DNA of 43,674 nt from Acholeplasma sp. (lineage in GTDB: Bacteria > Bacillota_I > Bacilli_A > Acholeplasmatales > UBA5453): NCBI GenBank assembly GCA_036677365.1, contig JAVBWN010000035.1:1-43674 (forward strand). The letters run 5' to 3'. A program made the position numbers and the translations under genes. The notes under the pieces are model-generated. The model worked only from the letters and a program-made list of their open reading frames with translations, did not search any database and was not told the origin of the DNA. Below, in pieces: positions 5,901 to 43,674 of the stretch. How positions within the stretch are numbered: position 1 is the first letter of the stretch; each line of letters opens with the position of its first letter.

Positions 5901-6626
5901 TTATATAATGAGTTTCGCAGCTTCTTTATCGATAAATACTTCGACATCCGGGTGATTTTGTAAAATCGAAGCAGGCAATTGTTCCGTGATGGGACCAGAA
6001 AGCATTTGCTTGATGGCTTCGGCTTTGTTTGCACCACTGGCCATCAAAATGATTTTTTTCGCGTCCATGATGTTTTTGATGCCCATGGTAATCGCTTCTT
6101 TAGGTACTTCATCTAAAGCGTTAAAGAATCTTGCATTATCCTTGCGTGTTTTTTCAGCCAAAGTCACAATGTGTGTTTTCACATCAAATGGTGTCCCTGG
6201 TTCGTTGAAACCAATATGACCGTTACTGCCAATCCCTAAAATTTGTATGTCTGGGATGTGTAGACTTAAGACGTCGTTATAAGCTTCACATGCGATATTC
6301 AAATCGTCTGATTCACCATCGGGTAAGTGTACTTGATTGAAATCGATGTTGATGTGGTCAAACAAGTTTTTCTTCATGAACGAGAAATACGATTCAGGGT
6401 GTGTTTTACCAATCTTAACATATTCATCGAGATTGACTGAAGTGACCTTACTATAATCGGTGTGGTTGGTTTGATGGTCTTTAATGAGCAGTTCATACAC
6501 ACCAACGGGTGTGGACCCTGTGGCTAAACCTAAGGTGATGGTAGGGTTATCTTTGATGGCTTCAATCAATATGTCGGAAACAGCCTTGTCTAGTTCTTTT
6601 TTGTTTCTGTAAATATGAATATTCAT
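5901..6626 (-). CDS. nagB: Glucosamine-6-phosphate deaminase
   Basis: LGLATGSTP, NLDEY, LGIGSNGHIGFNEPG, AITMG and PASILQ.H motifs. Start at ATG 6626 with GGAGG RBS. Confidence 0.96.
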   Translation of the reverse strand: MNIHIYRNKKELDKAVSDILIEAIKDNPTITLGLATGSTPVGVYELLIKDHQTNHTDYSKVTSVNLDEYVKIGKTHPESYFSFMKKNLFDHINIDFNQVHLPDGESDDLNIACEAYNDVLSLHIPDIQILGIGSNGHIGFNEPGTPFDVKTHIVTLAEKTRKDNARFFNALDEVPKEAITMGIKNIMDAKKIILMASGANKAEAIKQMLSGPITEQLPASILQNHPDVEVFIDKEAAKLII

Positions 6627-6627
6627 G

Positions 6628-7755
6628 TTATCCTCCGAAAACAACCTGGCCTTTAACCAAGGTTGTTTCAATGTTGTAGTTGTCATCTAATATGACTAGG
6701 TTTGCGAGTTTTCCTACTTCAATTGAACCCATCACGTGATCGAGTTTTAACTGAATGGCGGCTTTGGTAGAAGACATATAAGCGGCTTCATATAAAGAAA
6801 GACCTAAATCATTGAGGGCATATTTAAAACCATCCATGAATCTCAAGATTGAACCAGCCAATGTGCCATCGTTCAAACGGGCTTCACCCTGTGCGATGTG
6901 TACAGTTTGACCACCCAATTCGGATATACCATCGGGCATGTTTTTAGCACGCATCGAGTCTGTGATCAGTGTGATGTTTTGGTAACCCTTATTCTTTAAG
7001 AGCAATTTCGCAGCCGGTATAGACACATGGACTTTATCCAAAATCAATTCCGCTGTCAATTCATCGTGTAATAAAGCCGCACCCACGACCCCAATATCTC
7101 GGTGGTGTAGGGGTGTCATGGCATTGTACGTATGGGTGGTTGAGGTTGCTCCAAGTTTAATGGCTTCTAAAATGGTGCCATAATTCGCTTTGGTATGGGC
7201 GATGGAGGCCACAATGCCTTTGGTTCTTAAATGCGAAATCAACGCCATTGAACCAGGTATTTCAGGGGCTAAAGATACTTTTTTAATGATTTCCCCACTG
7301 GCTTTATTGAAACCATCAAATAGCGTAATATCCGAAGGGATGATACATGATTTTGGTTGTGCCCCTGCGGCGCCTTCATTGATGAAAGGACCTTCTAAAT
7401 GGACACCTAAAAGCATCGCGCCATTGGGGTTTTGATTTTGATAATAATGACCAATCGAAGTCAAAGCATTTTCGATATTGAGTTGTGTCTGTGTCATGGT
7501 GGTTGCTAAAAAAGCGGTGGTGCCCTCTTTGACTAAAGCCAGCGCGAGTTGTTCAATGGCATAAGTGCTCGCATCCATCGCGTCGACATTGCTTGCACCA
7601 TGAATATGTAAATCAATAAAACCAGGGATAACATAACGTTTTGTAATGTTGTTTGGTTCTGGCTTGATGTTTATTTTTGAAATTTTACCGTCTTCGATGA
7701 TCAAATCACCATAAACCACACGGTCTTTTAATACGATGTGTACATTGTTAAGCAT
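6628..7755 (-). CDS. nagA: N-acetylglucosamine-6-phosphate deacetylase
   Basis: PGFIDLHIHG, GTTAFLAT, HLEGPFI, LAPE, THTYNAM, LITDSM, LAGS motifs. Start at ATG 7755 with GGAGG RBS. Confidence 0.96.
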   Translation of the reverse strand: MLNNVHIVLKDRVVYGDLIIEDGKISKINIKPEPNNITKRYVIPGFIDLHIHGASNVDAMDASTYAIEQLALALVKEGTTAFLATTMTQTQLNIENALTSIGHYYQNQNPNGAMLLGVHLEGPFINEGAAGAQPKSCIIPSDITLFDGFNKASGEIIKKVSLAPEIPGSMALISHLRTKGIVASIAHTKANYGTILEAIKLGATSTTHTYNAMTPLHHRDIGVVGAALLHDELTAELILDKVHVSIPAAKLLLKNKGYQNITLITDSMRAKNMPDGISELGGQTVHIAQGEARLNDGTLAGSILRFMDGFKYALNDLGLSLYEAAYMSSTKAAIQLKLDHVMGSIEVGKLANLVILDDNYNIETTLVKGQVVFGG

Positions 7756-7957
7756 AGCAATCCTCCACAACATTTGATGTGATACAAGTCCATGATATCA
7801 TGGAAAGAATGAAAAAAAACAAAGTCGGTCGATTTTGAAAAAAAGGACATTGAAAAACACGGCTATTTTACTTTTTTGGATAAATTTTTCGAGGTGATGA
7901 CTTTATGATGACTTATATACCCCAACTTGTTACAATAAGTGTATCGGTGGTGATTCC

Positions 7958-9280
7958 ATGGACTTTCAAACATTCATAACCTTATTAGACATGCCTGACC
8001 CTGTAGTCAGTACAATCCAATCGTTACATCAACAACACCAAAATGCTTATCAGGATGACGTTTTAGGTTTACAATCCATGCGTACTGCAGAAGCCACGCA
8101 GAAGCGTTTACGTGAAACATTCAAATCCAGCGATGGCATGATGATTCTCTATTTGTTTTTAAGGGCGGCTTTGGATAATTATCCCCAATATCAATCCATG
8201 AAAATATCGGATGATGTGTTCATTGAAACTTATAAAGCATTACCAAGATTCATTAAGGAATTTCATAAGCAATCGGGTCAGTATGCTTTTGAGCGAGATT
8301 GGTGGGCGTATCGTCAAACGGCGATGAATATCTTTAGAATTGGTGAGCTCGAATATGAGATGACCATTCAAGAAAATACGAAAGTTTTATCGATTCATAT
8401 CCCTTCAGACGCCAACCTCACACATACCCATCTAGAAACCTCATTTAGACTGGCGAGATTGTTTTTTAATCGACGTTATCAGGCTTATGAAAATGCCCGA
8501 TTCTATTGTCATACATGGTTATTAAGCCCGGCTTTAAAAGGCTTATTGGAGCCATCTTCCAAGATACTTGCATTCCAAAGTTATTTTGATATTACCGCGA
8601 CTTTTTTAGAAAATAACTCCTATCTATATTGGGTATTTCAAACCAGAGATACGGATGTATCCAAGCTTGAAACCAAGACCTCACTACAAAAACGAATCAA
8701 ATCATTCGTTGAAGCTGGAGGGAAGATTGGCACAGCCTCCGGGTATGTCAATTTTGATCATTTCCAATACCGTTTTGAATCTCCCAATTTATCACATGAA
8801 GCTTTGGTTATGGACTATAAACGAGAGATGTTAGAAAACCAAGACCCATTAAATGGTACAGGTGGATTGGGTAGATATGATGCCTATGAAGACTGGCTAA
8901 AACACCTCGACGACAAAAAACATTTACGTATGGAAGGCGACACCATTCCAACCTCAGAGTATTTATTACTGGATCAACAAAACACGTTGTATGCCATGGT
9001 CAATGTCCGTCATTTTTTGGATGATGAACTCAGACAAACCTATGGTCATGCGGGGGCATCGGTTCGACCGAAATACCGTAAACAAGGCTATGCTAAATTG
9101 GCTTTATCTATGGCTCTAGAGGTCATCCAATCTTTAGGCGAGGAAGCTGCCATGATTTCATGTAGCGTATTCAATTTGGGTTCAAGAAAAACCATTGAAG
9201 CTTGTGGTGGTATCTTCGAACACATCGTGATGGACCACGAAGACAACGTAGAAATGCGTATTTATTGGATTTATATATAA
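7958..9280 (+). CDS. Two-domain acyltransferase: N-terminal acyltransferase-like domain (DUF5596/GNAT_C type) fused to a C-terminal GNAT
   Basis: N-part FRIGELEYE, LSIHIPS, CHTWLLSP.L..LL...S.I..FQ, TSLQ; C-part GHAGASVRPKYRKQGYA, similar to the 5346-5867 protein. Confidence 0.7.
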   Translation: MDFQTFITLLDMPDPVVSTIQSLHQQHQNAYQDDVLGLQSMRTAEATQKRLRETFKSSDGMMILYLFLRAALDNYPQYQSMKISDDVFIETYKALPRFIKEFHKQSGQYAFERDWWAYRQTAMNIFRIGELEYEMTIQENTKVLSIHIPSDANLTHTHLETSFRLARLFFNRRYQAYENARFYCHTWLLSPALKGLLEPSSKILAFQSYFDITATFLENNSYLYWVFQTRDTDVSKLETKTSLQKRIKSFVEAGGKIGTASGYVNFDHFQYRFESPNLSHEALVMDYKREMLENQDPLNGTGGLGRYDAYEDWLKHLDDKKHLRMEGDTIPTSEYLLLDQQNTLYAMVNVRHFLDDELRQTYGHAGASVRPKYRKQGYAKLALSMALEVIQSLGEEAAMISCSVFNLGSRKTIEACGGIFEHIVMDHEDNVEMRIYWIYI

Positions 9281-9407: not shown

Positions 9408-10037
9408 ATGAAGAAATATATCCTCGTGTTCTTAATTGTATTGGGGACAATAGCCCTATCGGGTTGTGTTGAAAAAACACCCGCTTGTAACGACAATGAA
9501 TCACGCATTGATGGCGTTTGCGTGGTCAATCGTACCGAGTTTGAAACAAAACTATACAATACAGCTAACCTAGATAATGTTACCATCGAATGGGTGGTTA
9601 CACTCGGTGAAGAAACCAGTACTTCAATATTGAAGTTTGATGGTCAAAAATCCTCAGTTCAGTCGGGCAATCATACAGAGTTTTATGAAACCGATGGGAC
9701 CACCACATACCGTTATTTTCAAACAGAAAATGGGTACGAAAGAGAAACTGTCCAGTTGAGTGGTTCTACTCAACCCTCGTTTTATGAAAATTTAAAAGAA
9801 ACAGACTTTACACTGATGGAAAATCGATATCTACTAAACTATGGTACATACAACGATATCCTAGGTTTCGTTAAAAGCTACGATTCGGAAGCAACTTTTT
9901 CAAACTTTGAATTGTCTGTAGAAACCTATATCACGCAAATCAAGTTTGACATCCTTGTAGGCGATCTGGTATATAAGCTTACATTGAATTATTCAAATCA
10001 TAATCAAACGACTGTAGAGGTACCAACCTATGCGTAA
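9408..10037 (+). CDS. Hypothetical lipoprotein
   Basis: MKK + hydrophobic stretch + LSGC lipobox; stop overlaps the next gene. Confidence 0.8.
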   Translation: MKKYILVFLIVLGTIALSGCVEKTPACNDNESRIDGVCVVNRTEFETKLYNTANLDNVTIEWVVTLGEETSTSILKFDGQKSSVQSGNHTEFYETDGTTTYRYFQTENGYERETVQLSGSTQPSFYENLKETDFTLMENRYLLNYGTYNDILGFVKSYDSEATFSNFELSVETYITQIKFDILVGDLVYKLTLNYSNHNQTTVEVPTYA

Positions 10038-11616
10038 TCCATTTTGGAAGAAATCTTTACTGTTACTCATCATCACTTTATTCACATTCACTCTGGTTCA
10101 ACCATATCGTGTGAATGCCGCTTTAAGAATATATCAAAAATCTCGTGACACCCAATATGTAGAAGGCGTTAGACACATCAAAATCGCCGCAGAAATCGAT
10201 TTTAATGGCACGATTTCAGAACAAGTCATTAACTATGCCGGAATCAATATTAAGAATAACCCGCACATCAAAGTGGTGGTTGCAGATAACTATAAAGTGA
10301 ATGGCTTTGGTATGTCTACAGTCCCACAACAAATATGGAACATCCATCAAAAATTTCCCAATGTTCAAGTCATTGCCGGTGTGAATGGCGACTTCTATAA
10401 CATGTCTAATGGAATCCCTGTGTCTCCTTATGTGAGAAACTATGAAGTCATCTTCCAAGGCACCACATGGGCAAGAACATTGGTTGGATTCAAAGACAAT
10501 GGCGATGTTGTCTTTGGGAAACCGACGTTTAGCGGTTATGAAGTCATGGTCTTTGATCAAGACGGGTCGCTTAAACTCAACCCAATCAAAGTGAATGCTT
10601 TCAATCGTTTACCAGCCAATGATAATGAAGTCACAGCCTTCTTCACAGAACATGCCAGTGAAATCAATTCTGGCGCACAAAAACTGATTGTACATGGGTT
10701 AGACATTAAATCGGATGGTTCCGGTTCAAGGTATTTTTCTAAAGGTACATTTGGCAGTATCACCAATGAAGTCATCTCAGTTCAAGAAAACCAATTTATA
10801 CTGATGGGTTCGAAGTTATTCGCTGAAGGTTTCATCGAATCCACCGATACGATTGTGGTTCAGCAACGCATGTCAGGTATCTTTGAAGGTGTCAGGGACG
10901 CGATTGGTGGTTGGGAAATTCTTGTAAAAAATGGTGTACCAGAAACCACATTTACCCAAGGGGCTTCTTATCAATTTAGAGCACCAAGAACTGCTGTCGG
11001 GATTAAAAATGATGGTACCGTGTTCTTTGTTACGGTCGATGGTAGAAACATGCCGCTGGGTATGGATGGTGTCACAGCCTATGAAATGGCTGAAATCATG
11101 GCTTATTTTGAAGCCGATCACGCCATCAATCTAGATGGTGGGGGTTCTACAACCATGGCGATTTTAAATGGTGAAGACTATGATATTGTCAACACACCTT
11201 CAGATGGCAACCTCAGATCGAATGCGAACGGTGTATTCTTTGTTAAAGGCAATCTACCACAAACATTGCCACCAGTACCGTATCCAGACAACCGTGAAAT
11301 ACTCAATACACCAAGCAATTTATTCATACAAAACTCAGGCGTATTGACATTCAATGCTGTAGATCACGCAACAAGATATGAAGTATGGATCAATGGGACA
11401 ACCAAAATCGATACGACCACTAATAGTGTAACTTTAAACTTACCAATAGGCACCTACGATATTCAAGTACGCGCTTATGGCAACCACGACACACATAAAC
11501 AATCCTTATATTCAGAAGCATTGACATTTACCGTGTACTCCAATGACATGTTGAATTTCATCGATTTCATCCGAGCATACACACAAACACAGCACAACAA
11601 TAACCAATCCAACTAA
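10030..11616 (+). CDS. Secreted phosphodiester glycosidase (NAGPA/DUF2233 family) with C-terminal Fn3-like domain
   Basis: Signal peptide; NGDFY, PRTAVG, VTVDGR, AINLDGGGSTTM and N.PSDG..R motifs. Confidence 0.88.
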   Translation: MRNPFWKKSLLLLIITLFTFTLVQPYRVNAALRIYQKSRDTQYVEGVRHIKIAAEIDFNGTISEQVINYAGINIKNNPHIKVVVADNYKVNGFGMSTVPQQIWNIHQKFPNVQVIAGVNGDFYNMSNGIPVSPYVRNYEVIFQGTTWARTLVGFKDNGDVVFGKPTFSGYEVMVFDQDGSLKLNPIKVNAFNRLPANDNEVTAFFTEHASEINSGAQKLIVHGLDIKSDGSGSRYFSKGTFGSITNEVISVQENQFILMGSKLFAEGFIESTDTIVVQQRMSGIFEGVRDAIGGWEILVKNGVPETTFTQGASYQFRAPRTAVGIKNDGTVFFVTVDGRNMPLGMDGVTAYEMAEIMAYFEADHAINLDGGGSTTMAILNGEDYDIVNTPSDGNLRSNANGVFFVKGNLPQTLPPVPYPDNREILNTPSNLFIQNSGVLTFNAVDHATRYEVWINGTTKIDTTTNSVTLNLPIGTYDIQVRAYGNHDTHKQSLYSEALTFTVYSNDMLNFIDFIRAYTQTQHNNNQSN

Positions 11617-11659: not shown

Positions 11660-12451
11660 ATGAAAATAATTACCTGCATCAAACAAGTCCCAGCATCCTC
11701 GAATGTTCAAGTAGACCCCATCACTGGGGTTTTAATCAGAGATTCACAGAACGTTAAAATGAATCCATTCGACCTGTTTGGCTTAGAAACTGCTTTTCAA
11801 ATCAAATCACGTATCGAAAACACAGCCATCCACGCTGTAACGATGGGGCCTCAATCGGCCACACAAGTACTTAAAGAAGCTTTATATATGGGTGCAGATG
11901 ACGCTACGTTACTCACTGACCGCAAATTTGCCGGAGCGGATGTGCTTGCAACCTCGTATACCATCAGTCAGTTGGTAAAACACATGAAGGATTATGACTT
12001 GGTTATTTGTGGCAAACAAACCACCGATGGCGATACAGCTCAAGTGGGACCTGAAATGGCTGAATTTTTAGGCATTCCTCATGTACCTTATGTTAAAGAA
12101 CTCATCGAAGTAACTTCAAAATACATCATCGTTAGAAGCGCTTATGATCAATACGATGAGATTGTAAAAGTTGAATTACCATGTCTTTTAACCGTAGAAA
12201 AAGATGCAAATACGCCTAGATTACCATCCTATAGAAGACAGCTTTTATTCGATAACTACAAGATAAACTATGTTACTTTCAAAGATTTAGAAGACCAAAA
12301 CGAAAATCATTACGGTTTGAATGGGTCTCCAACCCAAGTAGACGAGATTTTTTCACCGGACAAATCGATGCATTCCACCCGATTCGAAGGTGACCCACAA
12401 ACGCTGTCTAATCAATTAGTAGAGATACTAAAAGATAAGCGTTTCTTATAG
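11660..12451 (+). CDS. etfB: Electron transfer flavoprotein beta subunit (LctB-like)
   Basis: CIKQVP, NPFD, TMGP, DRKFAGADVLATS, GKQTTDGDTAQVGP, GLNGSPT.V motifs. Confidence 0.93.
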   Translation: MKIITCIKQVPASSNVQVDPITGVLIRDSQNVKMNPFDLFGLETAFQIKSRIENTAIHAVTMGPQSATQVLKEALYMGADDATLLTDRKFAGADVLATSYTISQLVKHMKDYDLVICGKQTTDGDTAQVGPEMAEFLGIPHVPYVKELIEVTSKYIIVRSAYDQYDEIVKVELPCLLTVEKDANTPRLPSYRRQLLFDNYKINYVTFKDLEDQNENHYGLNGSPTQVDEIFSPDKSMHSTRFEGDPQTLSNQLVEILKDKRFL

Positions 12452-12460
12452 GAGGGACCC

Positions 12461-13663
12461 ATGGGCTATATTAAAGTAGATAACACCAAAGTCACAAAAG
12501 AAATTGCAGACCAGCTCAAACAAGTGTGTCCGTTCAATGCGTTCGAGTATGTCGATGAGTATTTATCCATCAACGCGAGCTGTCGTGTATGCAAGCTATG
12601 CGTTAAAAAAGGACCTAAAGGGGTTTGTGAATTCATCGACGATTCGCGACCACAGATCGATAAATCCAAATACAAAGGCATCGCCGTTTTTATGGAACAA
12701 CACAACAATCTTTGTCACCCTGTCGGATTTGAATTGTTAGGTAAAGCCAAAGAAATCGCTCTAAAAACGAATGAAAAAGTATACGCGATTGTGATTGGTA
12801 GCGATACACAAGCGATGGTATCGGAGTGTCTTCAATATGGGGTAGATGATGTTTTTGTCTATCAAGACAGCCTATACCGTGATTTTAATGTCGAAAGATA
12901 CACCAATGTCATGGAGAGTTTCTATAAGAAATACCAAAACAACGTCATTTTATTTGGATCAACCCCACTGGGTAGAAGTTTCGCACCACGTGTCGCGGCA
13001 CGCCTAAAAACAGGACTAACAGCGGACTGTACGATGTTAGATATCACAGAAGAAGGCGATTTATTACAAATTCGTCCTGCCTTTGGTGGAAACATCATGG
13101 CGAAAATCAACACCCCAAATAACAGACCACAGCTCGCCACCATCCGCTATAAAATGTTTAATAAACCTGCGATTGTAAAGCCTTTTGGACAAGTCCACCA
13201 CGAATCCGTGGAAGATATCGAAAAACATTCTAGAATCGAACTCATCGAATCGGTACATAAACCTCAAGCCAAAGACATCTCTGAATCTGAAATCATCATC
13301 GCGCTGGGGAGAGGGATTAAAAAACAATCGGATTTGGCATTGATTGAACCACTTAGAGCACAATTGGGTGCCGATTTAGCTTGTACAAGACCACTCATCG
13401 AAAATGGTTGGTTCGATGCGAGACAGCAAATTGGATTATCGGGTAGAACGGTTAAACCAAAACTATTGATCAACATTGGTATCAGTGGTTCAGTCCATTT
13501 CATCGAAGGGATGAAGGAAGCTGAAACGATCATCACCATCAACCAAGACCCACAATGTAAGCTTTTCAATTATTCACACTACGCCATTTGTGGGGATTTA
13601 TACCAAGTATTGCCGAAATTAAACGAACTATTAGAACAATTGGGGGTCACACAACATGTTTAA
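12461..13663 (+). CDS. etfA: Electron transfer flavoprotein alpha subunit with N-terminal ferredoxin-like extension (LctC-like)
   Basis: N-terminal CPFNA...CRVCKLC...C; TGLTADCT, RPAFGGN, GRG, QIGLSGRTVKP, GISGSVHF motifs. Confidence 0.92.
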   Translation: MGYIKVDNTKVTKEIADQLKQVCPFNAFEYVDEYLSINASCRVCKLCVKKGPKGVCEFIDDSRPQIDKSKYKGIAVFMEQHNNLCHPVGFELLGKAKEIALKTNEKVYAIVIGSDTQAMVSECLQYGVDDVFVYQDSLYRDFNVERYTNVMESFYKKYQNNVILFGSTPLGRSFAPRVAARLKTGLTADCTMLDITEEGDLLQIRPAFGGNIMAKINTPNNRPQLATIRYKMFNKPAIVKPFGQVHHESVEDIEKHSRIELIESVHKPQAKDISESEIIIALGRGIKKQSDLALIEPLRAQLGADLACTRPLIENGWFDARQQIGLSGRTVKPKLLINIGISGSVHFIEGMKEAETIITINQDPQCKLFNYSHYAICGDLYQVLPKLNELLEQLGVTQHV

Positions 13664-15136: not shown

Positions 15137-15187
15137 TACTATGGTGAATTATACGATTAGATGTTTTTGAATGGGGGTTTTTATTTT

Positions 15188-34754: not shown

Positions 34755-34755
34755 G

Positions 34756-35633: not shown

Positions 35634-37100
35634 ATGAAAATATTCGCATTTTTCACCCTGTTATTCACCTTACCATTGCAAATTTCATCGGTTTCATATA
35701 ATTACTCTTATTATAATGAAGTCATTCACTCCGCACCGGGCATGACGTTCGCTGCGTATTTCAATGCGCAAACTTTAGGTACTAAGTTATCTACTCCGGA
35801 AGATATGGTTGTCTTTGAAGATTTAATCTATATCGTCGATTCAACTGAAAACGCGATTGTCATTGTGAATTCACAATTTGAAAAAGTGGATGTCATCAAA
35901 GACTTCCCGTATACTCAAAGTTTTTTAGATAAACAAGACCCTGAATTTATAGAAACCGGCACCACCCTCAAAGGGGCTTTTGGATTAGAAGTAACATCTA
36001 ATGCCGTTTATGTGGCTGACACAGGGAACAAGCGTATCGTCAAATTGAATCGTGATTTCGAAGTTGTAGATATCTTTGATACTGTGGATGACCCGACATT
36101 CGATGAACTCAATTTCGAACCAATCAAAATCACAGTGGATTCGACAGAACGCATGTATGTGATTGCAAAAAACGTCTATGAAGGCATCATTGAGCTATCT
36201 TCAAATGGCGATTTTAATCGCTTCACTGGGGTCAATCCAATCAAGATGACTCCGTATGAAATATTTAGAAGAAACATGATGACAGAAGCCCAACTGGCAC
36301 AATTGAAATTATTCTTACCAACAGAATATACAAACGTGGTTCTAAACCCAGAAAGTTTCATTTACGCAACTTCCAAGCCGAGTCAAAACAATGCTCAAAA
36401 CACGATCCAACTCATCAACCCTAAAGGCATCGATGTCATTAAAAAGCGTGGTTATTTTCCACCGATGGGTGACATCCATTACTTAGAGGGCGGTAATAAA
36501 TATGTCCTTACAGGACCATCATTACTACAAGACATCGCTTATACCAAACATGGCATTTACACTGTTTTAGACCAAAAACGTTCACGCTTATTTACCTACG
36601 ACAATGAAGGCAACTTGTTATACATCAACAGTGCAGAAGGTCAACAAAGCGATAAGTTTACCGAAGGGGTGGCCATCGCATACTTTAACGATGACATCAT
36701 GGTCTTAGACAGAAAAACCAGAACGGTCATTGTTTACCGATTGACTGATTTTGGTCGAGCAGTCAATTTAGCGGTTTCTCTACAAGATGAAGGCTTATAC
36801 GATGAGGCTGCAGAAATTTGGAGAGAGGTTTTGGTTTTAAATACCAACTACGAAGTCTCTTACAATGGCATTGGTAAGTACTTGCTAAGACGCGGTGAAT
36901 TCAAAGAAGCCATGACGTATTTTAAACTAGGCCACGATGATTTTTATTACTCAAAAGCTTTCAAAGGGTACCGTAACCAAATCTTAAGAGACAACTTCGG
37001 TTGGATCATGGGTGGCACGGTCACTTTGGCGGGTTTATTTGTGTATATCAAGATTCGTAAGACCATCAGAAGTGGAGGTCATGTCCTATATGAAGACTAA
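35634..37100 (+). CDS. NHL-repeat beta-propeller protein with TPR-like segment and C-terminal TM
   Basis: Signal peptide; IYIVDS.EN.I, VYVADTGNKRIV, P.KITVD...MYV repeats; AAE.W.EVL.LN.NY...Y.GIGK helices. Confidence 0.8.
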   Translation: MKIFAFFTLLFTLPLQISSVSYNYSYYNEVIHSAPGMTFAAYFNAQTLGTKLSTPEDMVVFEDLIYIVDSTENAIVIVNSQFEKVDVIKDFPYTQSFLDKQDPEFIETGTTLKGAFGLEVTSNAVYVADTGNKRIVKLNRDFEVVDIFDTVDDPTFDELNFEPIKITVDSTERMYVIAKNVYEGIIELSSNGDFNRFTGVNPIKMTPYEIFRRNMMTEAQLAQLKLFLPTEYTNVVLNPESFIYATSKPSQNNAQNTIQLINPKGIDVIKKRGYFPPMGDIHYLEGGNKYVLTGPSLLQDIAYTKHGIYTVLDQKRSRLFTYDNEGNLLYINSAEGQQSDKFTEGVAIAYFNDDIMVLDRKTRTVIVYRLTDFGRAVNLAVSLQDEGLYDEAAEIWREVLVLNTNYEVSYNGIGKYLLRRGEFKEAMTYFKLGHDDFYYSKAFKGYRNQILRDNFGWIMGGTVTLAGLFVYIKIRKTIRSGGHVLYED

Positions 37101-37731
37101 ATTCAGTACTTTTAAGGAGAACTACCTCAGCTTCCCTAAGTATGTTTTATTTCATCCATTCGATGGGTATGAAGAATTCAAACGTTATGAAAAAGGCAAA
37201 ATGAGTGTAGCCATTACATTCATCTTGTTATTCGCATTCCTTCGCATCTTCACCTATCAATACGAAGGACCACTCATCAATAACCGTAACCCAATGTTGT
37301 TAAATTCATTGGAGGAAATTTTCTCAGTGATTTTGCTTGTTGCGATATTCACCGCTGCAAACTGGTCTGTGACCACACTGATGGAAGGTAAAGGCAAATA
37401 CAAAGAAATCCTCATGGTAACAGGGTATGCATTGTTCCCCATCATCATCGTTGGGTTTCCTGCCGTGATTATTTCCAACTTTTTAACCCTTGAAGAAATG
37501 GCATTTTATACCTTAGCTGTATCGATTTCATATGTGGCAGCGGGTTGGATGTTATTCATGGGTATTTTAAACATCCACAATTATGGTCTGTTCAAAACCA
37601 TTTTAGCGTTTATTGCGACATTCATCGCGATGGCGGTATTGATGTTTTTAGGGTTATTATTCTTTGATTTAATCCAACAATTTATTTCATTTGTAGCCTC
37701 CATTTACAATGAAATATCGTTGAGATATTAG
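37081..37731 (+). CDS. Yip1-family membrane protein
   Basis: HPFDGY, ANW.VTTLMEGKG, YAL.P motifs; about five TM segments. Start is ATG 37081 or 37090 after GGAGG. Confidence 0.78.
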   Translation: MSYMKTKFSTFKENYLSFPKYVLFHPFDGYEEFKRYEKGKMSVAITFILLFAFLRIFTYQYEGPLINNRNPMLLNSLEEIFSVILLVAIFTAANWSVTTLMEGKGKYKEILMVTGYALFPIIIVGFPAVIISNFLTLEEMAFYTLAVSISYVAAGWMLFMGILNIHNYGLFKTILAFIATFIAMAVLMFLGLLFFDLIQQFISFVASIYNEISLRY

Positions 37732-37743: not shown

Positions 37744-40308
37744 ATGAAACTTAAAATATGGATTGGCATCCTCATCCTTTCAATTGGCATCGTGACTTAT
37801 CAAGTCGCATTCAAACTTAAACCTGCCAACATTCAATTCCCTGAGTTGATTGCCTATGATGAAACTGGGTTTATCGATGGGGCTAACTTAACAGATTCGA
37901 ATAAACTGGTGGCTTCAAACACCCACTTTGAATTGTATTTAAATGAAAACAATACGTACTTCAAAGTCGTCGACAAACGAAACGGTGAAGTGTGGCAATC
38001 GAACCCATCCATCCCAGACCCTTGGGAAGCAGAATCGGGTAAAATCACCCCAACTGCTGTGGAAAAACAAAAAGCCACACTGGAAGTCCAATATGTGGAT
38101 GCAAATGGTTCTTTGACGACGATCAACAACTATAAATTCGCCATCAGTCATCCGGAAAGTAAGCTATCCGCAGCAGGACAACGCACCTATAAAATCAAGT
38201 ATTTATCGGATGGTTTCCAAGTACTATACATGTTAGAAGACTTAGAAGTCGACTATCTATTCTTCCCTAAGTTTTTAACTAAAGAAACCATGGAAACACT
38301 GGAAGATCGCTCAATTTTAGAACAAATCGCTTATACCAAGTTCGATGAAGCCACAGGTTTATATGAAATTGCCCGTTATGAAACCATGAGCCGTTTGGTC
38401 ATCAACCGTTTATATGACATTTTCTATGGCAAACTGGGGTATACCCGTGAACGTGCCATTGAAGAGAACTTCAGTTATGGCTACACAGAAGAATATGAAA
38501 AAATTCGTTTTCAAATCGGCATTGAAGTTAAATTAACCGATAAAGGCATTGAAACCGCCATCATGAGAAATACACTTCAAGAGTTTGGTGGTTCAAGAAT
38601 TTCAAGCATCGCTTTATATCCGATGTTTGGGACAGCGATCTCTGAAATTGCTGGTGTCCCAACCGAAGGTTATATCGTCTTGCCGGATGGTACTGGCGCT
38701 ATTATGAATTTCAATAATGGCAAATACTATCAAAACCCATACCGTAAACGTCTGTATGGACAAGATTTGGCATTGCTTCCATTTAAAATGCGCGAACAAC
38801 AACAAGACATCACCATCCCTGTCTTTGGTATGGTTAAAGAACAAGGCGGGTTTGCAGGCATCATCACAGCTGGGGACGCCATGGCAACCATCAATGCCGA
38901 CGTATCTGGTCGTATTGACTCTTATAACAATGTCTTCGTATCATTCAATCTAAGAGAATCGGAGGCCATTACTTTGGGTACCCCATCGGTACCGCATGGC
39001 ATCACCTTATGGACCAAACCGATAGTTCGAACTGACTTTGTTGTTGCCTATGAATTCTTGACAGGCACTAAAAATTCGTACGTGGGTGTCGCTGAAAGCT
39101 ATAGAAATCATTTGATGGATACTTATGGTTTAACATTATCGGATAACACCAATCAAACCATCATCACAGCAGAATTTTTAGGGGCCTACGATAAGAAAGA
39201 ATTCTTCTTAGGTATCCCTTATACCACCACTCGTTCATTAACCACATTCAAACAAGCTCAAAAGATCATTTCACAGATGCAAGACTTAGCCATCGATGAT
39301 ATCAACGTCATTTATTCAGGCATCTTCAATGGCGGTCTATCACAAAGCATTGAAACCAACATCAACATTGAACGTGTCTTGGGCGATGGGGCTGGATTTA
39401 ACCGTATGGTTTCAGCGTTAGAAGCAAAAGATATACCTGTTTACGCTTCTATTAAATTGATGACCGTCAATGGATACCGTCGTTTTTCAGACCAATATAC
39501 GTATACTGCGAAACGCATCACCGGGAATAATGCCTACCTATATGAATATCATTTTCCAACCGGATTGCCTTATTCAGAAACGATGTACCCACACAGCGAT
39601 GCCGATTACATTGTGAACCCACAATATTATCAAGCCATCTACAACAAATTGGCTAAAGATTTTAAACACGAATATTTGGATTTATCAATGCTGGGTAATT
39701 ATTTAACAGGTTCTTATGATAAAACCAACATCATTTTTAAACAAGACGCGTTACGCCTTCAACAAGCCATCTTAGCGTCTTCTGATCGAAATTTGATGCT
39801 TAGAAATCCGATGGGATTCGCGATACCTTATGCGAATTACATCACCGATTTACCAACCGATACCACATTATATGCCATCATCGATAACCAAGTTCCACTC
39901 TTACAATTGGCATTGTCAGGTTTAGTCGATTATGCAGGCAATTCAATCAACATTATTTCCACAAGAAGCATTGAGTATAATTTCTTAAAAGCCATCGAAA
40001 CCGGGTCTAACCTGAAGTATACGTTGACCTATGATGACTCTAGAGAACTCCTCAACACCGAATACAATCAGTACAACTCCACGTATTATAAAAACTGGTT
40101 GAATTTGATGCAAGCACAAAAAGCTGAATTAGACAATCTTGGCATCCACCAAGGCCGTTTGATTCATCATGAAATCATCGCACCAAATGTTTATAAAGTC
40201 ACTTATGCCCATGGGTTAGAAATCGTCATCAATTACAACTTGACCCCAATCAGTTATCAAGGACAATTCGTCTTCGCCATGAATTATAAAGTGGTAGGGG
40301 GGAACTAA
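37744..40308 (+). CDS. DUF5696-like large extracellular protein (possible glycoside-hydrolase-like barrel)
   Basis: N-terminal anchor; V.DKRNG.VW.SNP, GYIVLPDG.GA...F, PVFG, SYVG.A..YR, LTTF.QA, VP..Q....G, IETG motifs; position after Yip1. Confidence 0.7.
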   Translation: MKLKIWIGILILSIGIVTYQVAFKLKPANIQFPELIAYDETGFIDGANLTDSNKLVASNTHFELYLNENNTYFKVVDKRNGEVWQSNPSIPDPWEAESGKITPTAVEKQKATLEVQYVDANGSLTTINNYKFAISHPESKLSAAGQRTYKIKYLSDGFQVLYMLEDLEVDYLFFPKFLTKETMETLEDRSILEQIAYTKFDEATGLYEIARYETMSRLVINRLYDIFYGKLGYTRERAIEENFSYGYTEEYEKIRFQIGIEVKLTDKGIETAIMRNTLQEFGGSRISSIALYPMFGTAISEIAGVPTEGYIVLPDGTGAIMNFNNGKYYQNPYRKRLYGQDLALLPFKMREQQQDITIPVFGMVKEQGGFAGIITAGDAMATINADVSGRIDSYNNVFVSFNLRESEAITLGTPSVPHGITLWTKPIVRTDFVVAYEFLTGTKNSYVGVAESYRNHLMDTYGLTLSDNTNQTIITAEFLGAYDKKEFFLGIPYTTTRSLTTFKQAQKIISQMQDLAIDDINVIYSGIFNGGLSQSIETNINIERVLGDGAGFNRMVSALEAKDIPVYASIKLMTVNGYRRFSDQYTYTAKRITGNNAYLYEYHFPTGLPYSETMYPHSDADYIVNPQYYQAIYNKLAKDFKHEYLDLSMLGNYLTGSYDKTNIIFKQDALRLQQAILASSDRNLMLRNPMGFAIPYANYITDLPTDTTLYAIIDNQVPLLQLALSGLVDYAGNSINIISTRSIEYNFLKAIETGSNLKYTLTYDDSRELLNTEYNQYNSTYYKNWLNLMQAQKAELDNLGIHQGRLIHHEIIAPNVYKVTYAHGLEIVINYNLTPISYQGQFVFAMNYKVVGGN

Positions 40309-40309: not shown

Positions 40310-41236
40310 ATGCAGAATATCCAAAAACCCATGAAGATGACAAAAAACATCAATAAATATCATAAACAAAAACAATTTTGGTCGATGGTATTCTTACTCC
40401 CTTGGATGCTAGGCATTGTATTCTTATTTGGTATGCCTTTAATCCAATCGTTCTTGTATTCATTCTTTAAACTCACACCACGTGTCGGTGAAATTGTATT
40501 AGAATTTGTGGGCATGGGGAATTACCTATTCGCTTGGAATACCCACGTCACTACAGTCAGTAGTTTCAAAGTAGAACTCATCAACACGGTGACAGATGTC
40601 GTCATCAATTTACCAGTATTGCTCATTTTCAGTTTATTCATCGCGGTCATGTTGAATGCGAAATTCAAAGGCAGAGCTGTTGTTAGAGCGATATTCTTCA
40701 TCCCAGTCATCCTAAACTCAGCTGCGGTTGCAACCGCTTTGGGTGGGGGAGACATCATTACACAAATTTTGGAACAACAAAACATTGGACAACTATTTGA
40801 TTTGGAATATTTCCTCGTTCAAACGGGTCTGGATCAAGTGATTGTTGGCTTCATCAGTGGATTGATTGGTCGTATTTATGACATCCTCGCCTTGGCAGGT
40901 GTCCCAATTCTACTCTTCTTAGCCTCCATTCAATCCGTACCGAAACATTTATATGAAGCGGCAAAGATTGAAGGTGCAACCGCCTACGAGATGTTCTGGT
41001 TGATTACATTACCAAACGTATCCCCGCACATCATCACAGTCACTGTGTATGCTTTGGTGGATACCTTCTTAACCTCATCGGTTTCAGGCATCATTTCCGA
41101 TGAACTCAATAAACAACAATGGGGCGTATCCTCCGCGATGTCTTGGATGTATGTCGGTTCCATCATAGTCATCCTATTAATCATCTTCTTACTGGCAAAA
41201 ATATTTGGAATTGGAGGTTCACACTATGAAAACTAA
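40310..41236 (+). CDS. Carbohydrate ABC transporter permease (MalF type), second pair
   Basis: FVG.GNY, FKGR...RAIFF.PV, LYEAAKIEGAT..E.FW.ITLP. Confidence 0.92.
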   Translation: MQNIQKPMKMTKNINKYHKQKQFWSMVFLLPWMLGIVFLFGMPLIQSFLYSFFKLTPRVGEIVLEFVGMGNYLFAWNTHVTTVSSFKVELINTVTDVVINLPVLLIFSLFIAVMLNAKFKGRAVVRAIFFIPVILNSAAVATALGGGDIITQILEQQNIGQLFDLEYFLVQTGLDQVIVGFISGLIGRIYDILALAGVPILLFLASIQSVPKHLYEAAKIEGATAYEMFWLITLPNVSPHIITVTVYALVDTFLTSSVSGIISDELNKQQWGVSSAMSWMYVGSIIVILLIIFLLAKIFGIGGSHYEN

Positions 41237-42236
41237 TGTCCTCCAAAAGATTCAAACGTATTATGAAAAGAAGAAGACTGAAATCAAAGACACGTATTTC
41301 ACACAGAAGTTGAATGCGAAAAGAAAACGCGATTTCCAAGCGTTCTTCGGGTCATTCTTCCGCTATGTCTTTTTAATTGGTTTGTGTTTCGTCATTTTAT
41401 TTCCAACCATCCAACAAATCCTTCAAGCTTTAAGAGCCCCTGAAGATGTGAATAACCCTGCGGTAATTTGGATCCCTGAAATATGGTCACTCAAGAACTT
41501 GGAACTGGCTGTATTGGTATTGGATTATAAAGATGCACTCATCAATACAGCAACCATGTCATTCATTTCAATGGTTTTACAGTTGTTCTCAACCGCATTG
41601 GCTGGGTATTCATTCTCAAGACTTAAAAACAAAGTGACGAATGTGTTGTTCATTTTGGTCATCTTGACCATCATCATCCCACCACAAGCGTTATCGCTTT
41701 CCCAATACTTGTACTTTAGAGACCTCAGGTTAATCGGTAAGCAATCATCGATTTACTTGATGAACCTCTTAGGCATGGGGATTCGTTCAGGTATTTTCAT
41801 CTTCATTTTCAGACAATTCTTTGCGGGGTTGCCTAAAGAACTTGAAGAGTCTGCCCAAATCGATGGTGCAGGGGTATTTAGAATATTCTTCTCAGTCATG
41901 TTACCAAACGCCCGTGGGGCGATGGTCACGGTCGGTCTATTCTCATTTGTTTGGGCATGGAACGATGCGTATTATGTCAAGATATTCGAAGTATCGACCG
42001 CCGATTTCCCACTTTTGACGATGAGATTATTGAATGCTGCAGAAAACATGTATGCCCAACTATTTTATACGGGTGGGCTAGACTTGGTTGGACAAGATGT
42101 ATGGGAAAATCCATTGTTCTTAGCACTCATCAGTAATGTCGCTGCCTTACTCATGATGTTGCCATTACTCATCATGTATTTATTTGTTCAAAAACAATTT
42201 GTTGAATCGATTGAAAGAACCGGCATCGTCGGTTAG
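41226..42236 (+). CDS. Carbohydrate ABC transporter permease (MalG type), second pair
   Basis: AGYSFSR, FRQFFAGLPKELEESAQIDGAG, FVWAWND, QKQFVESIERTGIVG. Start at ATG 41226 after GGAGG. Confidence 0.92.
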   Translation: MKTNVLQKIQTYYEKKKTEIKDTYFTQKLNAKRKRDFQAFFGSFFRYVFLIGLCFVILFPTIQQILQALRAPEDVNNPAVIWIPEIWSLKNLELAVLVLDYKDALINTATMSFISMVLQLFSTALAGYSFSRLKNKVTNVLFILVILTIIIPPQALSLSQYLYFRDLRLIGKQSSIYLMNLLGMGIRSGIFIFIFRQFFAGLPKELEESAQIDGAGVFRIFFSVMLPNARGAMVTVGLFSFVWAWNDAYYVKIFEVSTADFPLLTMRLLNAAENMYAQLFYTGGLDLVGQDVWENPLFLALISNVAALLMMLPLLIMYLFVQKQFVESIERTGIVG

Positions 42237-42244
42237 GAGTTCAT

Positions 42245-42883
42245 ATGTTCATAGAAAAACCCTTTTTCCAAAAAATCAATCAAATCAGTGACTGGGTATT
42301 GCGTTTGGTGATCATCAACACGTTGGTCATTCTGACGATTTTACCCATCATCACACTCTTTTTGGGGCTATCTACCGGATACAACACCTTAAGAGACCTT
42401 TGGAGAAAAAAGGAAAAAGGGTTATTCAGAACGTATGTTAAACACTTAAAGTACCGTATTTTTCACAAACTTTTGTTGGGATTGGTGCTGGGTGTGATTA
42501 TTTTGGTGGGCTATCTCAACATGACTTATTATGTTGAACTCATCGAAACCACACCAACCTTATTCTACCAAGCAGGCTATTACATCACATTGTTCTTTGT
42601 GGTGATGATGCTTTCTGTATCATTGTATTTGTTACCCATCGTCTATGCTAAGCCTCTTTTGGGCATCAAAGCATCCATCAAATTGGCTTTTTATGTGGCG
42701 GGTAAATATATCATAAGAACAGTATTCTTGTTACTCACACCAGCATTATTGTTATTCTTGTTGCTCACCTCATTCACTTCCATGATATTTGTCTTACTTG
42801 GTGTCAGTGGTTGGTTGATGGTGATGGTTTTAATCACCGATGTGGTGGTGGATTTGGTAGAGGAGATGAATCGTCGTGATTAA
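42245..42883 (+). CDS. YesL/DUF624-like membrane protein
   Basis: D...L...N.L.IL..LPIIT start, 4-5 TM segments; typical position after sugar ABC permeases. Confidence 0.68.
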   Translation: MFIEKPFFQKINQISDWVLRLVIINTLVILTILPIITLFLGLSTGYNTLRDLWRKKEKGLFRTYVKHLKYRIFHKLLLGLVLGVIILVGYLNMTYYVELIETTPTLFYQAGYYITLFFVVMMLSVSLYLLPIVYAKPLLGIKASIKLAFYVAGKYIIRTVFLLLTPALLLFLLLTSFTSMIFVLLGVSGWLMVMVLITDVVVDLVEEMNRRD

Positions 42884-43674
42884 ATTAGGCATTGAGCAAA
42901 TCGGTCTATATCGATCGCTATTTGAAGGTAAACGTGTGGGTTTAATCACAAACCCTACAGGTGTCAATCAACAGTTCAAATCGACGATTGACATTCTCCA
43001 TGAAGTATCCACGTTGGTAGCGCTATTTTCACCAGAACACGGGGTTAGAGGTAACGTTCAAGCAGGCGTTAAATTAGACCCGTATATCGACAAAGAAACC
43101 AACGCGATGGTGTATTCACTCTATGGTGAAACCCGAAAACCAACCGAAGCGATGATGTCTGATATCGATATACTTTGTTTCGATATTCAAGATGTGGGTG
43201 CGCGATTTTACACCTATATCTACACCATGGCATTCGCATTAGAAGCATGCAAGACCTATGGCAAGAAAATGGTTGTCTTCGACAGACCGAATCCCCTTGG
43301 TGGGGTAGTTGTGGAAGGTAATCTTTTAGATTTAAACTTTAGAAGTTTTGTCGGGTACTATTCCATCCCACAACGCTATGGTTTAACCATTGGCGAACTG
43401 GCGAATTACTTTAATGATTTAGGTGATATTCACGCCGACCTCACGGTCATCTCCATGGCGGGTTATCACAGAAGTATGCATTTTAAAGACACCCAGGTGC
43501 CCTTTGTATTACCATCACCGAACATCCCGACGCCTGAAACCATTTATGCGTATATGGCGACTTGTTATTTTGAAGGAACCAACCTATCCGAAGGCAGAGG
43601 TACGACCAAACCCTTTCAAATATTTGGTGCCCCATGGTTTAATAGCAAAGCGGTTCTAGAAGCTTTAAAACCAT
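42876..43674 (+). CDS. namZ: Exo-beta-N-acetylmuramidase NamZ (DUF1343/YbbC), truncated by window end
   Basis: Manual translation from GTG 42876: MIKLGIEQ...GKRVGLITNPTG...ALFSPEHGVRG...SLYGETRKP...FDIQDVGARFYTYIYTM...DRPNPLGG...SPNIP...EGTNLSEGRGTTKPF. No signal peptide. Not in the ORF track. Confidence 0.93.
   Translation, partial: MIKLGIEQIGLYRSLFEGKRVGLITNPTGVNQQFKSTIDILHEVSTLVALFSPEHGVRGNVQAGVKLDPYIDKETNAMVYSLYGETRKPTEAMMSDIDILCFDIQDVGARFYTYIYTMAFALEACKTYGKKMVVFDRPNPLGGVVVEGNLLDLNFRSFVGYYSIPQRYGLTIGELANYFNDLGDIHADLTVISMAGYHRSMHFKDTQVPFVLPSPNIPTPETIYAYMATCYFEGTNLSEGRGTTKPFQIFGAPWFNSKAVLEALKP

Follow-up and report, generated by a model that had tools for sequence, protein, structure and literature searches.

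Peptidoglycan is a large carbon and nitrogen pool of dead microbial biomass, and to our knowledge few dedicated consumers of it are known at the gene level. In Bacillus subtilis, N-acetylmuramic acid (MurNAc) is recycled through the operon murQ-murR-murP-amiE-nagZ-namZ. In the anhydro-muropeptide recycling of Escherichia coli, lytic transglycosylases make anhydro ends, import is by AmpG, and AnmK, MurQ, NagA and NagB follow. Polysaccharide utilisation loci of Gram-positives and Bacteroidota bring together surface depolymerases, a binding-protein importer, cytoplasmic exo-glycosidases and a local regulator in co-linear order. We analysed contig JAVBWN010000035.1 of an Acholeplasma sp. (GenBank assembly GCA_036677365.1; 1.97 Mb in 37 contigs). 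This entire contig, C35 in our numbering and 43,674 nucleotides long, is referred to as the window. Together with its continuation on contig C28 it carries a locus, about 40 kb long, that probably serves peptidoglycan utilisation and with which a wall-less host of the Acholeplasma group would feed on foreign bacterial walls, most likely those of dead cells.

The gene inventory was based on an open reading frame (ORF) listing, a Pfam scan of 31 proteins and an NCBIfam scan. All of the gene classes that an earlier, sequence-only reading had named in the window were recovered at their coordinates by the Pfam and NCBIfam models. The genes of the MurNAc route and the lytic enzymes are as follows.

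5901..6686, minus strand: NagB, glucosamine-6-phosphate deaminase, cytoplasmic (TIGR00502, 274.8 bits, above the cut-off of 236.9; Pfam Glucosamine_iso)
6628..7773, minus strand: NagA, N-acetylglucosamine (GlcNAc)-6-phosphate deacetylase, cytoplasmic (TIGR00221, 310 bits, above the cut-off of 225.65)
16178..17317, plus strand: AnmK, anhydro-MurNAc kinase (NF007142, 475.4 bits, above the cut-off of 435)
17283..18545, plus strand: cytoplasmic GHL10 protein of 420 amino acids (aa) with a Cwp19-like catalytic domain (PDB Cwp19 5oq2, 2.4e-81)
18542..22252, plus strand: double GHL10 surface protein, 1236 aa (PF02638 in two stretches, 7.3e-118)
22249..23289, plus strand: cytoplasmic hydrolase of the S12 beta-lactamase fold, 346 aa, PBP4B/AmiE-like (PF00144, 2.4e-41)
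23271..26513, plus strand: surface lipoprotein of 1080 aa combining a beta-helix with five Big_2 domains and one Amidase_2 domain (Pfam; PF01510, 5.5e-18)
42876..43673, plus strand: NamZ, exo-beta-N-acetylmuramidase, 5' part of 266 residues (NamZ_N, 4.6e-83; NamZ_C positions 2-42)

By the ORF listing, all locus genes within the window are intact open frames save NamZ, which is cut at the contig end. On C28, 74 codons at 14723-14944 of the minus strand match NamZ_C positions 84-152 and form the first gene of that contig when it is read in reverse; the genome has a single NamZ_N. Beyond the end of NamZ, C28 continues with NagZ (NF003740, 212.8 bits, above the cut-off of 207), a BadF-type sugar kinase that appears MurK-like, MurQ (380.9 bits against an NCBIfam equivalog cut-off of 302), a GNAT gene on the opposite strand and a GH18 lipoprotein. 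In G007, a genome of the same genus in a single contig of 1.88 Mb, the locus is contiguous and its order is kept from the 209-aa lipoprotein through to MurQ (tblastn), with minus-strand NagB and NagA after MurQ in two copies. Because NamZ is split across the two contig ends and the locus is contiguous in G007, C35 and C28 are neighbours and the locus spans about 40 kb. The AnmK-MurQ-NagA-NagB route that the sequence-only reading had proposed is encoded in full, each ortholog scoring above its NCBIfam equivalog cut-off, with MurQ lying outside the window.

Judged from its genes, the host makes no peptidoglycan. Six-frame searches of the whole genome (completeness 99.86%, contamination 0.67%) gave no match to SEDS, penicillin-binding protein (PBP) transpeptidase, Glycos_transf_4/MraY, MurG or GT51, and each of these searches was positive in 10-14 of 14 control genomes. 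The sole Mur_ligase_M match was FolC (TIGR01499, 372 bits), hence no MurC-F, and the sole MurA-like match was AroA (TIGR01356, 387 bits). The guess that the host lacks peptidoglycan synthesis is borne out by this mur and PBP search, as is the view that the locus does not serve self-recycling: that is excluded because the synthesis genes are missing, and the exclusion is reinforced by 40 of 41 locus-bearing genomes without SEDS and MraY (see below). A cultured relative, Peloplasma, is wall-less by microscopy (PMC11122141).

The B. subtilis operon shares with the present locus MurQ, a MurR/RpiR regulator, NagZ, NamZ and an adjoining S12-type hydrolase, and in both MurNAc is funnelled to GlcNAc-6-phosphate; its NamZ is the subject of PMC8054146. 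In B. subtilis, however, NagZ and AmiE are secreted, whereas NagZ, NamZ and the S12 hydrolase here have no signal peptide, and uptake is by the phosphotransferase system (PTS) protein MurP, whereas here there are ATP-binding cassette (ABC) systems and no PTS domain in the locus genes (MurP was sought at the locus only). AnmK, three GHL10 domains, a surface endolysin-type amidase, a lactate dehydrogenase with electron-transfer flavoprotein subunits (Ldh-EtfAB) and about ten unassigned genes are additional to the B. subtilis set. Unlike in B. subtilis, the substrate must be foreign here because the host has no wall. With E. coli the locus shares the sequence lytic transglycosylase, anhydro-MurNAc, AnmK, MurQ, NagA and NagB; E. 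coli recycles its own wall by way of AmpG, whereas here an outward-facing GHL10 protein of a wall-less cell, ABC import and a catabolic end are found. The layout is that of polysaccharide utilisation loci, but the substrate would be peptidoglycan, the carrier is wall-less and the enzymes have lipid or transmembrane (TM) anchors only. Tannerella forsythia depends on peptidoglycan fragments of its neighbours and has NamZ, MurK and MurQ-type enzymes as here (PMC7670621, PMC5388701). It builds its own wall from the scavenged MurNAc, whereas the pathway here would end in glycolysis and lactate oxidation.

The GHL10 domains had been taken for hydrolases; they are more likely lytic transglycosylases, given the match of the catalytic domain to Cwp19 of Clostridioides difficile. 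Cwp19 releases 1,6-anhydro-muropeptides (PMC6016235), and Asp195, Asp196, Tyr197, Trp127 and Arg132 have been proposed as its active-site residues (PMC5765458). The motifs H(F/Y)DDYFY and AW.NPYR, which cover the Asp195-Asp196-Tyr197, Trp127 and Arg132 positions, are present in 3/3 GHL10 domains of the locus, the cytoplasmic protein having HFDDYFY and AWCNPYR. Given a lytic-transglycosylase fold of the Cwp19 type, AnmK would have its anhydro-MurNAc substrate. Cwp19 is an autolysin tethered by CWB2 repeats to the wall of the cell that makes it (PMC6016235, PMC5765458), whereas here one GHL10 protein is cytoplasmic, with neither TM helix nor signal peptide in the topology scan, and two domains are fused in a TM-anchored protein devoid of a wall-binding repeat. 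This double GHL10 protein has an N-terminal signal or TM segment, a C-terminal TM anchor and OmpL47-type barrel domains (NCBIfam). Homologs of the cytoplasmic GHL10 protein in walled Bacteroidota have such neighbours too: of 63 loci from outside Acholeplasma, 11 have AnmK at a distance of up to 10 kb, 10 have MurQ, 18 have NagZ and 2 have NamZ.

The amidase lipoprotein (lipobox LSAC at 22) carries the sole Amidase_2 domain of the genome. Against the PDB this domain matched B. subtilis XlyA (3hmb, 4.5e-24) and likewise the PlyL endolysin. It was also matched by 408 phage records, of which 246 belong to Bacillus phages and 110 to Paenibacillus phages, and thus resembles endolysins from phages that infect Gram-positives; the endolysin of Bacillus phage phi105 ranked first at about 42% identity. 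The domain has the stretches WIVVHETAN and AYHQDFSGKICP, which presumably hold the zinc ligands His...His...Cys, as we assign them from the Amidase_2 family pattern. The neighbouring gene had been called an AmiE-like hydrolase; it does encode an S12 serine hydrolase, with the motifs S57-x-x-K and H293-T-G, which is PBP4B-like. By the precedent of AmiE it may remove peptides from MurNAc, an amidase activity that we infer only from this analogy.

The distribution of the locus agrees with a host among wall-less relatives. The ten closest loci in a collection of species-representative genomes, at 54-64% identity to the cytoplasmic GHL10 protein, are labelled Acholeplasmataceae (4), Acholeplasma (2), Tenericutes (2) and Izemoplasmatales (2), in keeping with the Acholeplasmataceae guess made from the sequence. 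One of the two Acholeplasma-labelled loci belongs to the cultured A. oculi ATCC 27350. The next matches, at 36-42% identity, come from Lentisphaerota, Clostridia and Bacteroidota. Within contig reach, most of the ten loci have, in this order, Etf, Ldh, MurR, AnmK, GHL10, the double GHL10 protein, the PBP4B-like hydrolase, the amidase and the 803-aa protein; gene order in L011 diverges downstream of the cytoplasmic GHL10 gene. In a quick tree of 75 GHL10 sequences, from which L013 was excluded by a length filter, the 11 wall-less Acholeplasma-group sequences, the window's included, formed one clade with a support of 100; the genome G029 joined that clade at 93 on a long branch, and Lentisphaerota were sister at 99. 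Locus labels and GHL10 tree together point to a host within the Acholeplasmatales.

A survey of gene content across the order, which the sequence-only reading had suggested, covered 251 genomes drawn evenly, the window's own included. Counts by family, in which the window's genome is left out and f1 is its family, were as follows.

SEDS: f1 0/21, f3 0/116, f2 55/106, f4 2/5, f5 2/2
MraY: f1 0/21, f3 0/116, f2 51/106, f4 2/5, f5 2/2
AnmK: f1 10/21, f3 29/116, f2 0/106, f4 0/5, f5 1/2
GHL10: f1 11/21, f3 30/116, f2 1/106, f4 0/5, f5 2/2
MurQ: f1 12/21, f3 30/116, f2 0/106, f4 0/5, f5 1/2

With the window's genome counted, AnmK was present in 41/251 genomes, and all 41 also had GHL10 and MurQ. 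Both SEDS and MraY were absent from 40 of these 41, which belong to two families; the exception was G029. Of the 41 genomes, 27 had AnmK and MurQ on a single contig with 26-37 kb between them, one (G029) had them side by side and 13 had them on different contigs. Because 27/41 genomes have the two genes at this spacing, their clustering is not due to chance. Family f2 is split for the wall genes SEDS and MraY, and neither AnmK nor MurQ was found in it.

The MurQ reaction releases D-lactate, and the locus encodes all three subunits of an Ldh-EtfAB complex of the electron-confurcating type, with a one-cluster ferredoxin domain on EtfA.

11660..12451, plus strand: EtfB, LctB-like (PF01012; adjoins the LctC and LctD homologs)
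12461..13663, plus strand: EtfA with an N-terminal [4Fe-4S] ferredoxin domain, LctC-like (PDB 7qh2_A LctC, 3.3e-126)
13656..15047, plus strand: FAD-dependent lactate dehydrogenase, LctD-like (PDB 7qh2_C LctD, 8.3e-172, residues 2-462)

EtfB scored 236.6 bits against NF040731, below the cut-off of 445. The ferredoxin domain of EtfA in Acetobacterium woodii Ldh-EtfAB has the signature C(x)17CxxCxxC (PMC9232219). Cysteines 23, 41, 44 and 47 of the EtfA here form the same signature, with residue numbers identical to those mutated in the A. woodii study. The three subunits and the cysteine signature are thus shared with A. woodii LctBCD; the A. woodii genes, however, form a lactate-growth operon with a permease and a racemase, whereas here they stand in a MurNAc catabolic locus. 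The place of the dehydrogenase within the locus and, in G029, directly beside MurQ points to oxidation of the lactyl group as well. Ldh-EtfAB would therefore act on the D-lactate derived from MurQ.

The remaining conserved genes encode predicted surface proteins and importers. Topology was assigned by a simple hydropathy and lipobox scan of the translated proteins.

9408..10037, plus strand: lipoprotein of 209 aa without known family, the first conserved locus gene (lipobox LSGC at 17)
10030..11616, plus strand: secreted NAGPA-like phosphodiester glycosidase, 528 aa (PF09992, 1.9e-35; signal peptide)
26658..29069, plus strand: surface protein of 803 aa with a signal peptide, one Ig-like domain and a C-terminal TM anchor
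29275..30837, plus strand: Ig-like surface lipoprotein of 520 aa (PF16403, 3.2e-16; lipobox LAAC)
30904..33810, plus strand: membrane-anchored solute-binding protein of the sugar CUT1 type, 968 aa (SBP_bac_8/SBP_bac_1 at residues 576-872)
33822..35622, plus strand: ABC sugar permease pair 1 (BPD_transp_1; UgpA/UgpE-like)
35634..37731, plus strand: TPR/NHL surface protein (488 aa) and Yip1 membrane protein (239 aa) (Pfam)
37744..40308, plus strand: DUF5696 protein of 854 aa with an N-terminal TM helix (PF18952, 4.2e-153)
40310..42883, plus strand: ABC sugar permease pair 2 and a DUF624/MusI membrane protein (BPD_transp_1, DUF624)

Lipoboxes were found in the amidase, 520-aa and 209-aa proteins; a signal peptide with a C-terminal TM helix and basic tail in the double GHL10, 803-aa and TPR proteins; and an N-terminal TM helix in the 968-aa binding protein and the DUF5696 protein. 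No signal was found in the 420-aa GHL10 protein, the S12 hydrolase, AnmK, NagZ, NamZ, NagA or NagB. A pattern search of the locus proteins gave no LPxTG, none of the 31 window proteins scanned with Pfam matched SLH or LysM, and the genome has no sortase. Anchoring by lipoboxes or C-terminal TM helices, as the sequence-only reading had it, is therefore confirmed. TM helices followed by a short basic tail (KKKP, RKRP), again without LPxTG, end the frames at 22150-22252, 28990-29069 and about 37010-37100 and the C-terminus of hyp522 on C28; such tails may be sortase sorting signals stripped of their motif after wall loss.

No Pfam match was obtained for the 209-aa lipoprotein, and homologs stand at the equivalent place in G007 and L005. 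The NAGPA-like protein, which matched DUF2233 (3ohg, 5.7e-13) and NAGPA (6pku, 1.3e-5) in the PDB, is conserved in G007, L005, L006 and L011. The 803-aa protein has 168 relatives, and the named ones are all called hypothetical and come from Acholeplasma, Mariniplasma, Paracholeplasma, Izemoplasmatales or Tenericutes, including one of 44% identity named as A. laidlawii. It thus appears to represent an undescribed family with all of its named members in the Acholeplasma group. Nothing known matched its first approximately 650 residues, a PDB profile search hitting the C-terminal Ig-like domain only; an atlas search gave Ig-like surface-protein clusters at a similarity of only 0.84, under the level of a lead, and was set aside. 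The 520-aa lipoprotein is 68% identical in G007, permease pair 1 is 90-92% identical there, and the TPR/NHL and Yip1 proteins are conserved in both G007 and G029.

The 968-aa binding protein has a long N-terminal extension, and its C-terminal part resembles oligosaccharide binders in the PDB (e.g. 5ysb, 1.7e-8). For the DUF5696 protein, a PDB sequence search was without match and an atlas feature-similarity search gave a lead of 0.90 to GH101/GH129 clusters, so that it is possibly a GH101/GH129-like glycosidase. Its gene precedes permease pair 2, which lacks a dedicated binding protein. The DUF624 protein scored 47 bits with NF052431 (MusI_fam), under the cut-off. There is no ABC ATPase in the locus; an orphan ATPase of the MalK/MsmX type on contig C1 probably energises its permeases. 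At C1:22418-23434 and C1:24711-25826 (L087 8419-9435 and 10712-11827) an S66 peptidase and this orphan ATPase lie near each other. The peptidase is of the LD-carboxypeptidase type and keeps both domains; S66 LD-carboxypeptidases act on peptidoglycan stem peptides in other bacteria.

From these genes a route from the surface to the cytoplasm can be proposed. The endolysin-type amidase lipoprotein would strip stem peptides from the foreign wall, and the anchored double GHL10 protein would cut the glycan strands to leave 1,6-anhydro-MurNAc ends; such enzymes are tolerable on the cell's own surface because it has no wall. More speculatively, the NAGPA-like glycosidase and the DUF5696 protein may take off wall-attached polymers. 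The two CUT1-type ABC systems, with the 968-aa binder and four permeases, would import the oligosaccharides, the MsmX-like ATPase probably providing the energy. In the cytoplasm the third GHL10 domain, NagZ and NamZ would dismantle the oligosaccharides and the PBP4B/AmiE-like hydrolase would remove leftover peptides. AnmK and the MurK-like kinase would yield MurNAc-6-phosphate and GlcNAc-6-phosphate, MurQ would convert the former to GlcNAc-6-phosphate and D-lactate, and NagA and NagB would lead on to fructose-6-phosphate, with Ldh-EtfAB oxidising the lactate to pyruvate. The MurR/RpiR regulator would govern expression. Topology fits this model, in that the predicted surface enzymes have a lipobox or TM helix and the predicted cytoplasmic ones have neither.

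Candidate expression signals were found at the following positions.

15161..16033, plus strand: MurR/RpiR-family regulator (Pfam HTH_6 and SIS)
26592..26620, plus strand: promoter-like site TTGACA-17-TAAAAT before the 803-aa gene, with the highest score in the locus (11/12 matches)
29089..29114, plus strand: terminator-like hairpin past the 803-aa gene (10-pair stem and T run)

MurR-type regulators sense MurNAc-6-phosphate; the regulator here has the HTH_6 and SIS architecture, scored 158 bits with NF008458 (below the cut-off of 378) and is 72-88% identical in relatives; a promoter-like site at 15108-15136 lies upstream of its gene. An Rfam scan returned three tRNAs only and no riboswitch within the locus. 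A shared operator was sought in eight intergenic regions and no convincing common word of at least 9 letters emerged; the palindrome TTACA-N-TGTAA has a single occurrence in the window where 0.77 would be expected, which is not significant alone. Palindromes of the form TTAC-N3-6-GTAA stand at about 16140-16152, ahead of anmK, and at 29213-29226, ahead of the 520-aa gene, in each case downstream of a promoter-like site, and at corresponding places in G007 (L078 16288; joined coordinate 30207). These may be the MurR operator.

At least 69% of the sampled words of 16178-26170 were found in sequencing runs of eight studies, not counting the possible source, with habitat labels of sludge, bioreactor, groundwater, plastic, soil and sediment. 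Among the matching runs, four from two studies are recorded as metatranscriptomes and contain 69-83% of these words; runs X19 and X20 held only 0.07 of them and X21-X24 next to none. Contigs of the four RNA-labelled runs cover 30/30 bins of 23675-43674, and 46/57 records have at least 99% identity. Contig depth, which cannot rank genes, was 85-178 over 25.7-29.0 kb versus about 5-40 elsewhere in two runs of one study, and in 3/4 RNA runs (X10 and X16 from the first study and X18 from the second) contigs break within 29066-29315, with contig ends at 29066-29083. The depth over the 803-aa gene and the contig break agree with the predicted promoter and terminator, which hints that the signal is RNA. 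The locus is therefore apparently expressed, the RNA-library contigs giving support rather than proof, and the 803-aa gene looks like a strongly represented transcription unit of its own.

That the locus is directed at foreign walls, as the sequence-only reading proposed, is supported by the host and the make-up of the locus, and from the gene content we infer feeding rather than killing. The enzymes could instead serve mainly as a weapon, lysing living walled bacteria on contact and thereby killing competitors or prey, with sugar use as a by-product. They are surface-anchored and not released, so contact would be needed; the amidase domain is of endolysin type; a wall-less producer is inherently immune; and Anaeroplasma bactoclasticum is reportedly bacteriolytic according to classical accounts. 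Bacteriolytic mollicutes of the rumen have also been noted (PMC8941964). Import and catabolism, however, take up over half of the locus, with two ABC systems, three enzymes that are kinases or etherase, NagA/NagB and lactate dehydrogenase, for which a mere weapon would have no use; Gram-negative outer membranes would protect living prey, and the Pfam scan found no toxin, pore-former or secretion system in the window. The available stable-isotope probing (SIP) evidence, moreover, concerns heat-killed cells (PMC4628116), and we regard a primary role as a weapon as rather unlikely. It is more improbable still that the target is another GlcNAc-rich polymer such as chitin, host glycans, teichoic acids or capsules, with the MurNAc enzymes handling only a side stream. 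Specificity is unassigned for the DUF5696 protein with its GH101/GH129-like lead, the NAGPA-like, 803-aa and 520-aa proteins and the GH18 lipoprotein of C28, the binding protein resembles generic oligosaccharide binders, and one GHL10 protein has been reported to be starch-active (PMC9967864). AnmK, MurQ, NamZ and Amidase_2, however, are specific for MurNAc substrates and are conserved with the rest, GHL10 homologs sit with AnmK, MurQ, NagZ and NamZ in walled Bacteroidota too, and, among characterised GHL10 proteins, the nearest acts on peptidoglycan as a lytic transglycosylase; the GH18 gene, for its part, is missing from the G007 locus.

A decaying remnant of self-recycling in a walled ancestor, or a mis-binned contig of a walled organism, might also account for such genes in this assembly. 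The presence of the core locus in walled G029, a window G+C of 0.404 that is slightly above most contigs of the genome, and an assembly in 37 contigs would fit. The open frames are intact, however, and the catalytic motifs are kept; both the single-contig genome G007 and cultured A. oculi have the locus; 40 genomes of two families that lack SEDS and MraY have retained it; RNA-library contigs cover it; and the estimated contamination of the assembly is low (0.67%). The contiguity in G007 and the order sample largely refute this explanation, which we consider extremely improbable. Feeding on foreign peptidoglycan remains the probable function, and several observations count against it. The walled relative G029 (about 80% complete, SEDS and MraY present) carries the core locus, first as GHL10, GHL10, binding protein, permeases, TPR, Yip1, DUF5696 and permeases and then as NamZ, NagZ, kinase, AnmK, MurQ, EtfB, EtfA and Ldh; these genes alone therefore do not imply scavenging. 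The locus is accessory, AnmK, GHL10 and MurQ being missing from G009, G012, G014 and G015, which are of the same genus and 93-99% complete. The best NCBIfam model for the S12 hydrolase, NF002968 for PBP4B, reached 129 bits against a cut-off of 385. Pfam found in the surface enzymes no recognised peptidoglycan-binding module (LysM, SH3b, SLH or CWB2) that would explain their targeting. The RNA evidence consists of assembled RNA-library contigs, which may contain DNA, and a literature search found no growth, induction or enzyme assay for the locus or its relatives. In the SIP paper (PMC4628116) the word peptidoglycan has 0 occurrences, and the label may have entered through other cell components.

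The G029 locus also bears on origin. Since G029 is walled and has the core, the locus is no invention of wall-less cells but was retained by them, and the G029 arrangement may be the state that preceded wall loss. In 57 kb of G029 (C3:20000-77569; L081-L083) there was no match to the amidase, PBP4B-like and 803-aa proteins.

Between NagA and the first conserved locus gene lies a further gene, whose membership of the locus is uncertain.

7958..9280, plus strand: NAT_N/GNAT_C/GNAT acyltransferase of 440 aa (PF18082, PF18164)

It has no homolog in the 60-kb locus of G007, and a terminator-like site at 9279-9298 stands at its end. Outside the locus, window positions 1-5867 hold a DegV/FakB-like protein, an SRAP peptidase, a cytoplasmic alpha-amylase, a GNAT protein, a two-TM protein without family, and tRNA-Gln, tRNA-His and tRNA-Trp. 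Positions 1-55 are repeated on two other contigs, C18 and C21, and another five share just the initial 20 bases, which makes seven altogether; a dispersed repeat probably broke the assembly there. On C28 (L004) the GNAT gene and the GH18 lipoprotein adjoin MurQ at 8378-11335, with an IS605 OrfB-type fragment at the far end (3-467). Homologs of this GNAT recur in L010, L011 and G029, and the GH18 lipoprotein has no counterpart in the G007 locus. In G007 a gene for a GH4-family glycosidase (L078 17489-18706) separates anmK from the gene of the cytoplasmic GHL10 protein, and L005, L006, L009, L010, L012, L013 and L052 have a gap of about 1.2 kb at this position; in the window and L011 the two genes abut with nothing between.

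The enzymes and the pathway are of known kinds. What appears new is their conserved assembly from surface to cytoplasm in bacteria that lack peptidoglycan, together with the pairing of GHL10 with AnmK, the built-in Ldh-EtfAB and the conserved surface proteins without assigned function. The sequence-only reading knew of no description of this combination, and a literature search, with subscription journals outside its scope, likewise found no account of wall-less bacteria, Acholeplasma included, that catabolise MurNAc or peptidoglycan, and no paper on Acholeplasma and the etherase. The words peptidoglycan, murein, muramic, muramoyl, amidase and cell wall have 0 occurrences in the A. oculi genome paper. 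Environmental mollicutes have been described as DNA degraders (PMC11129491), and the Peloplasma description suggests necromass use without a mechanism (PMC11122141). In RNA-SIP of aerated pig slurry, Acholeplasma was the predominant assimilator 2 h after heat-killed 13C-labelled E. coli was added (PMC4628116), and the locus would explain this early assimilation of dead-cell label.

The locus would change the view of environmental mollicutes, so far described mainly as degraders of DNA or sugars, and would link the GHL10 family with AnmK across phyla and a bifurcating-type lactate dehydrogenase with the MurQ reaction. These links are readily testable, as cultured carriers exist (A. oculi, Mariniplasma). 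In a wider reading, to which we give as much credence as doubt, free-living Acholeplasmatales are specialised consumers of bacterial walls, in which wall loss permits surface lysins, oligomers are imported whole, the lactyl group is harvested through the electron-confurcating lactate dehydrogenase and a docking apparatus may exist; the 803-aa, 520-aa, TPR, Yip1 and DUF5696 proteins may form such an apparatus for sacculi or cells. If this is true, there would be dedicated peptidoglycan turnover in sludge, sediment and soil, and wall-lessness would carry a selective advantage, the benefit of wall loss being that lysins can be used freely on the cell surface.

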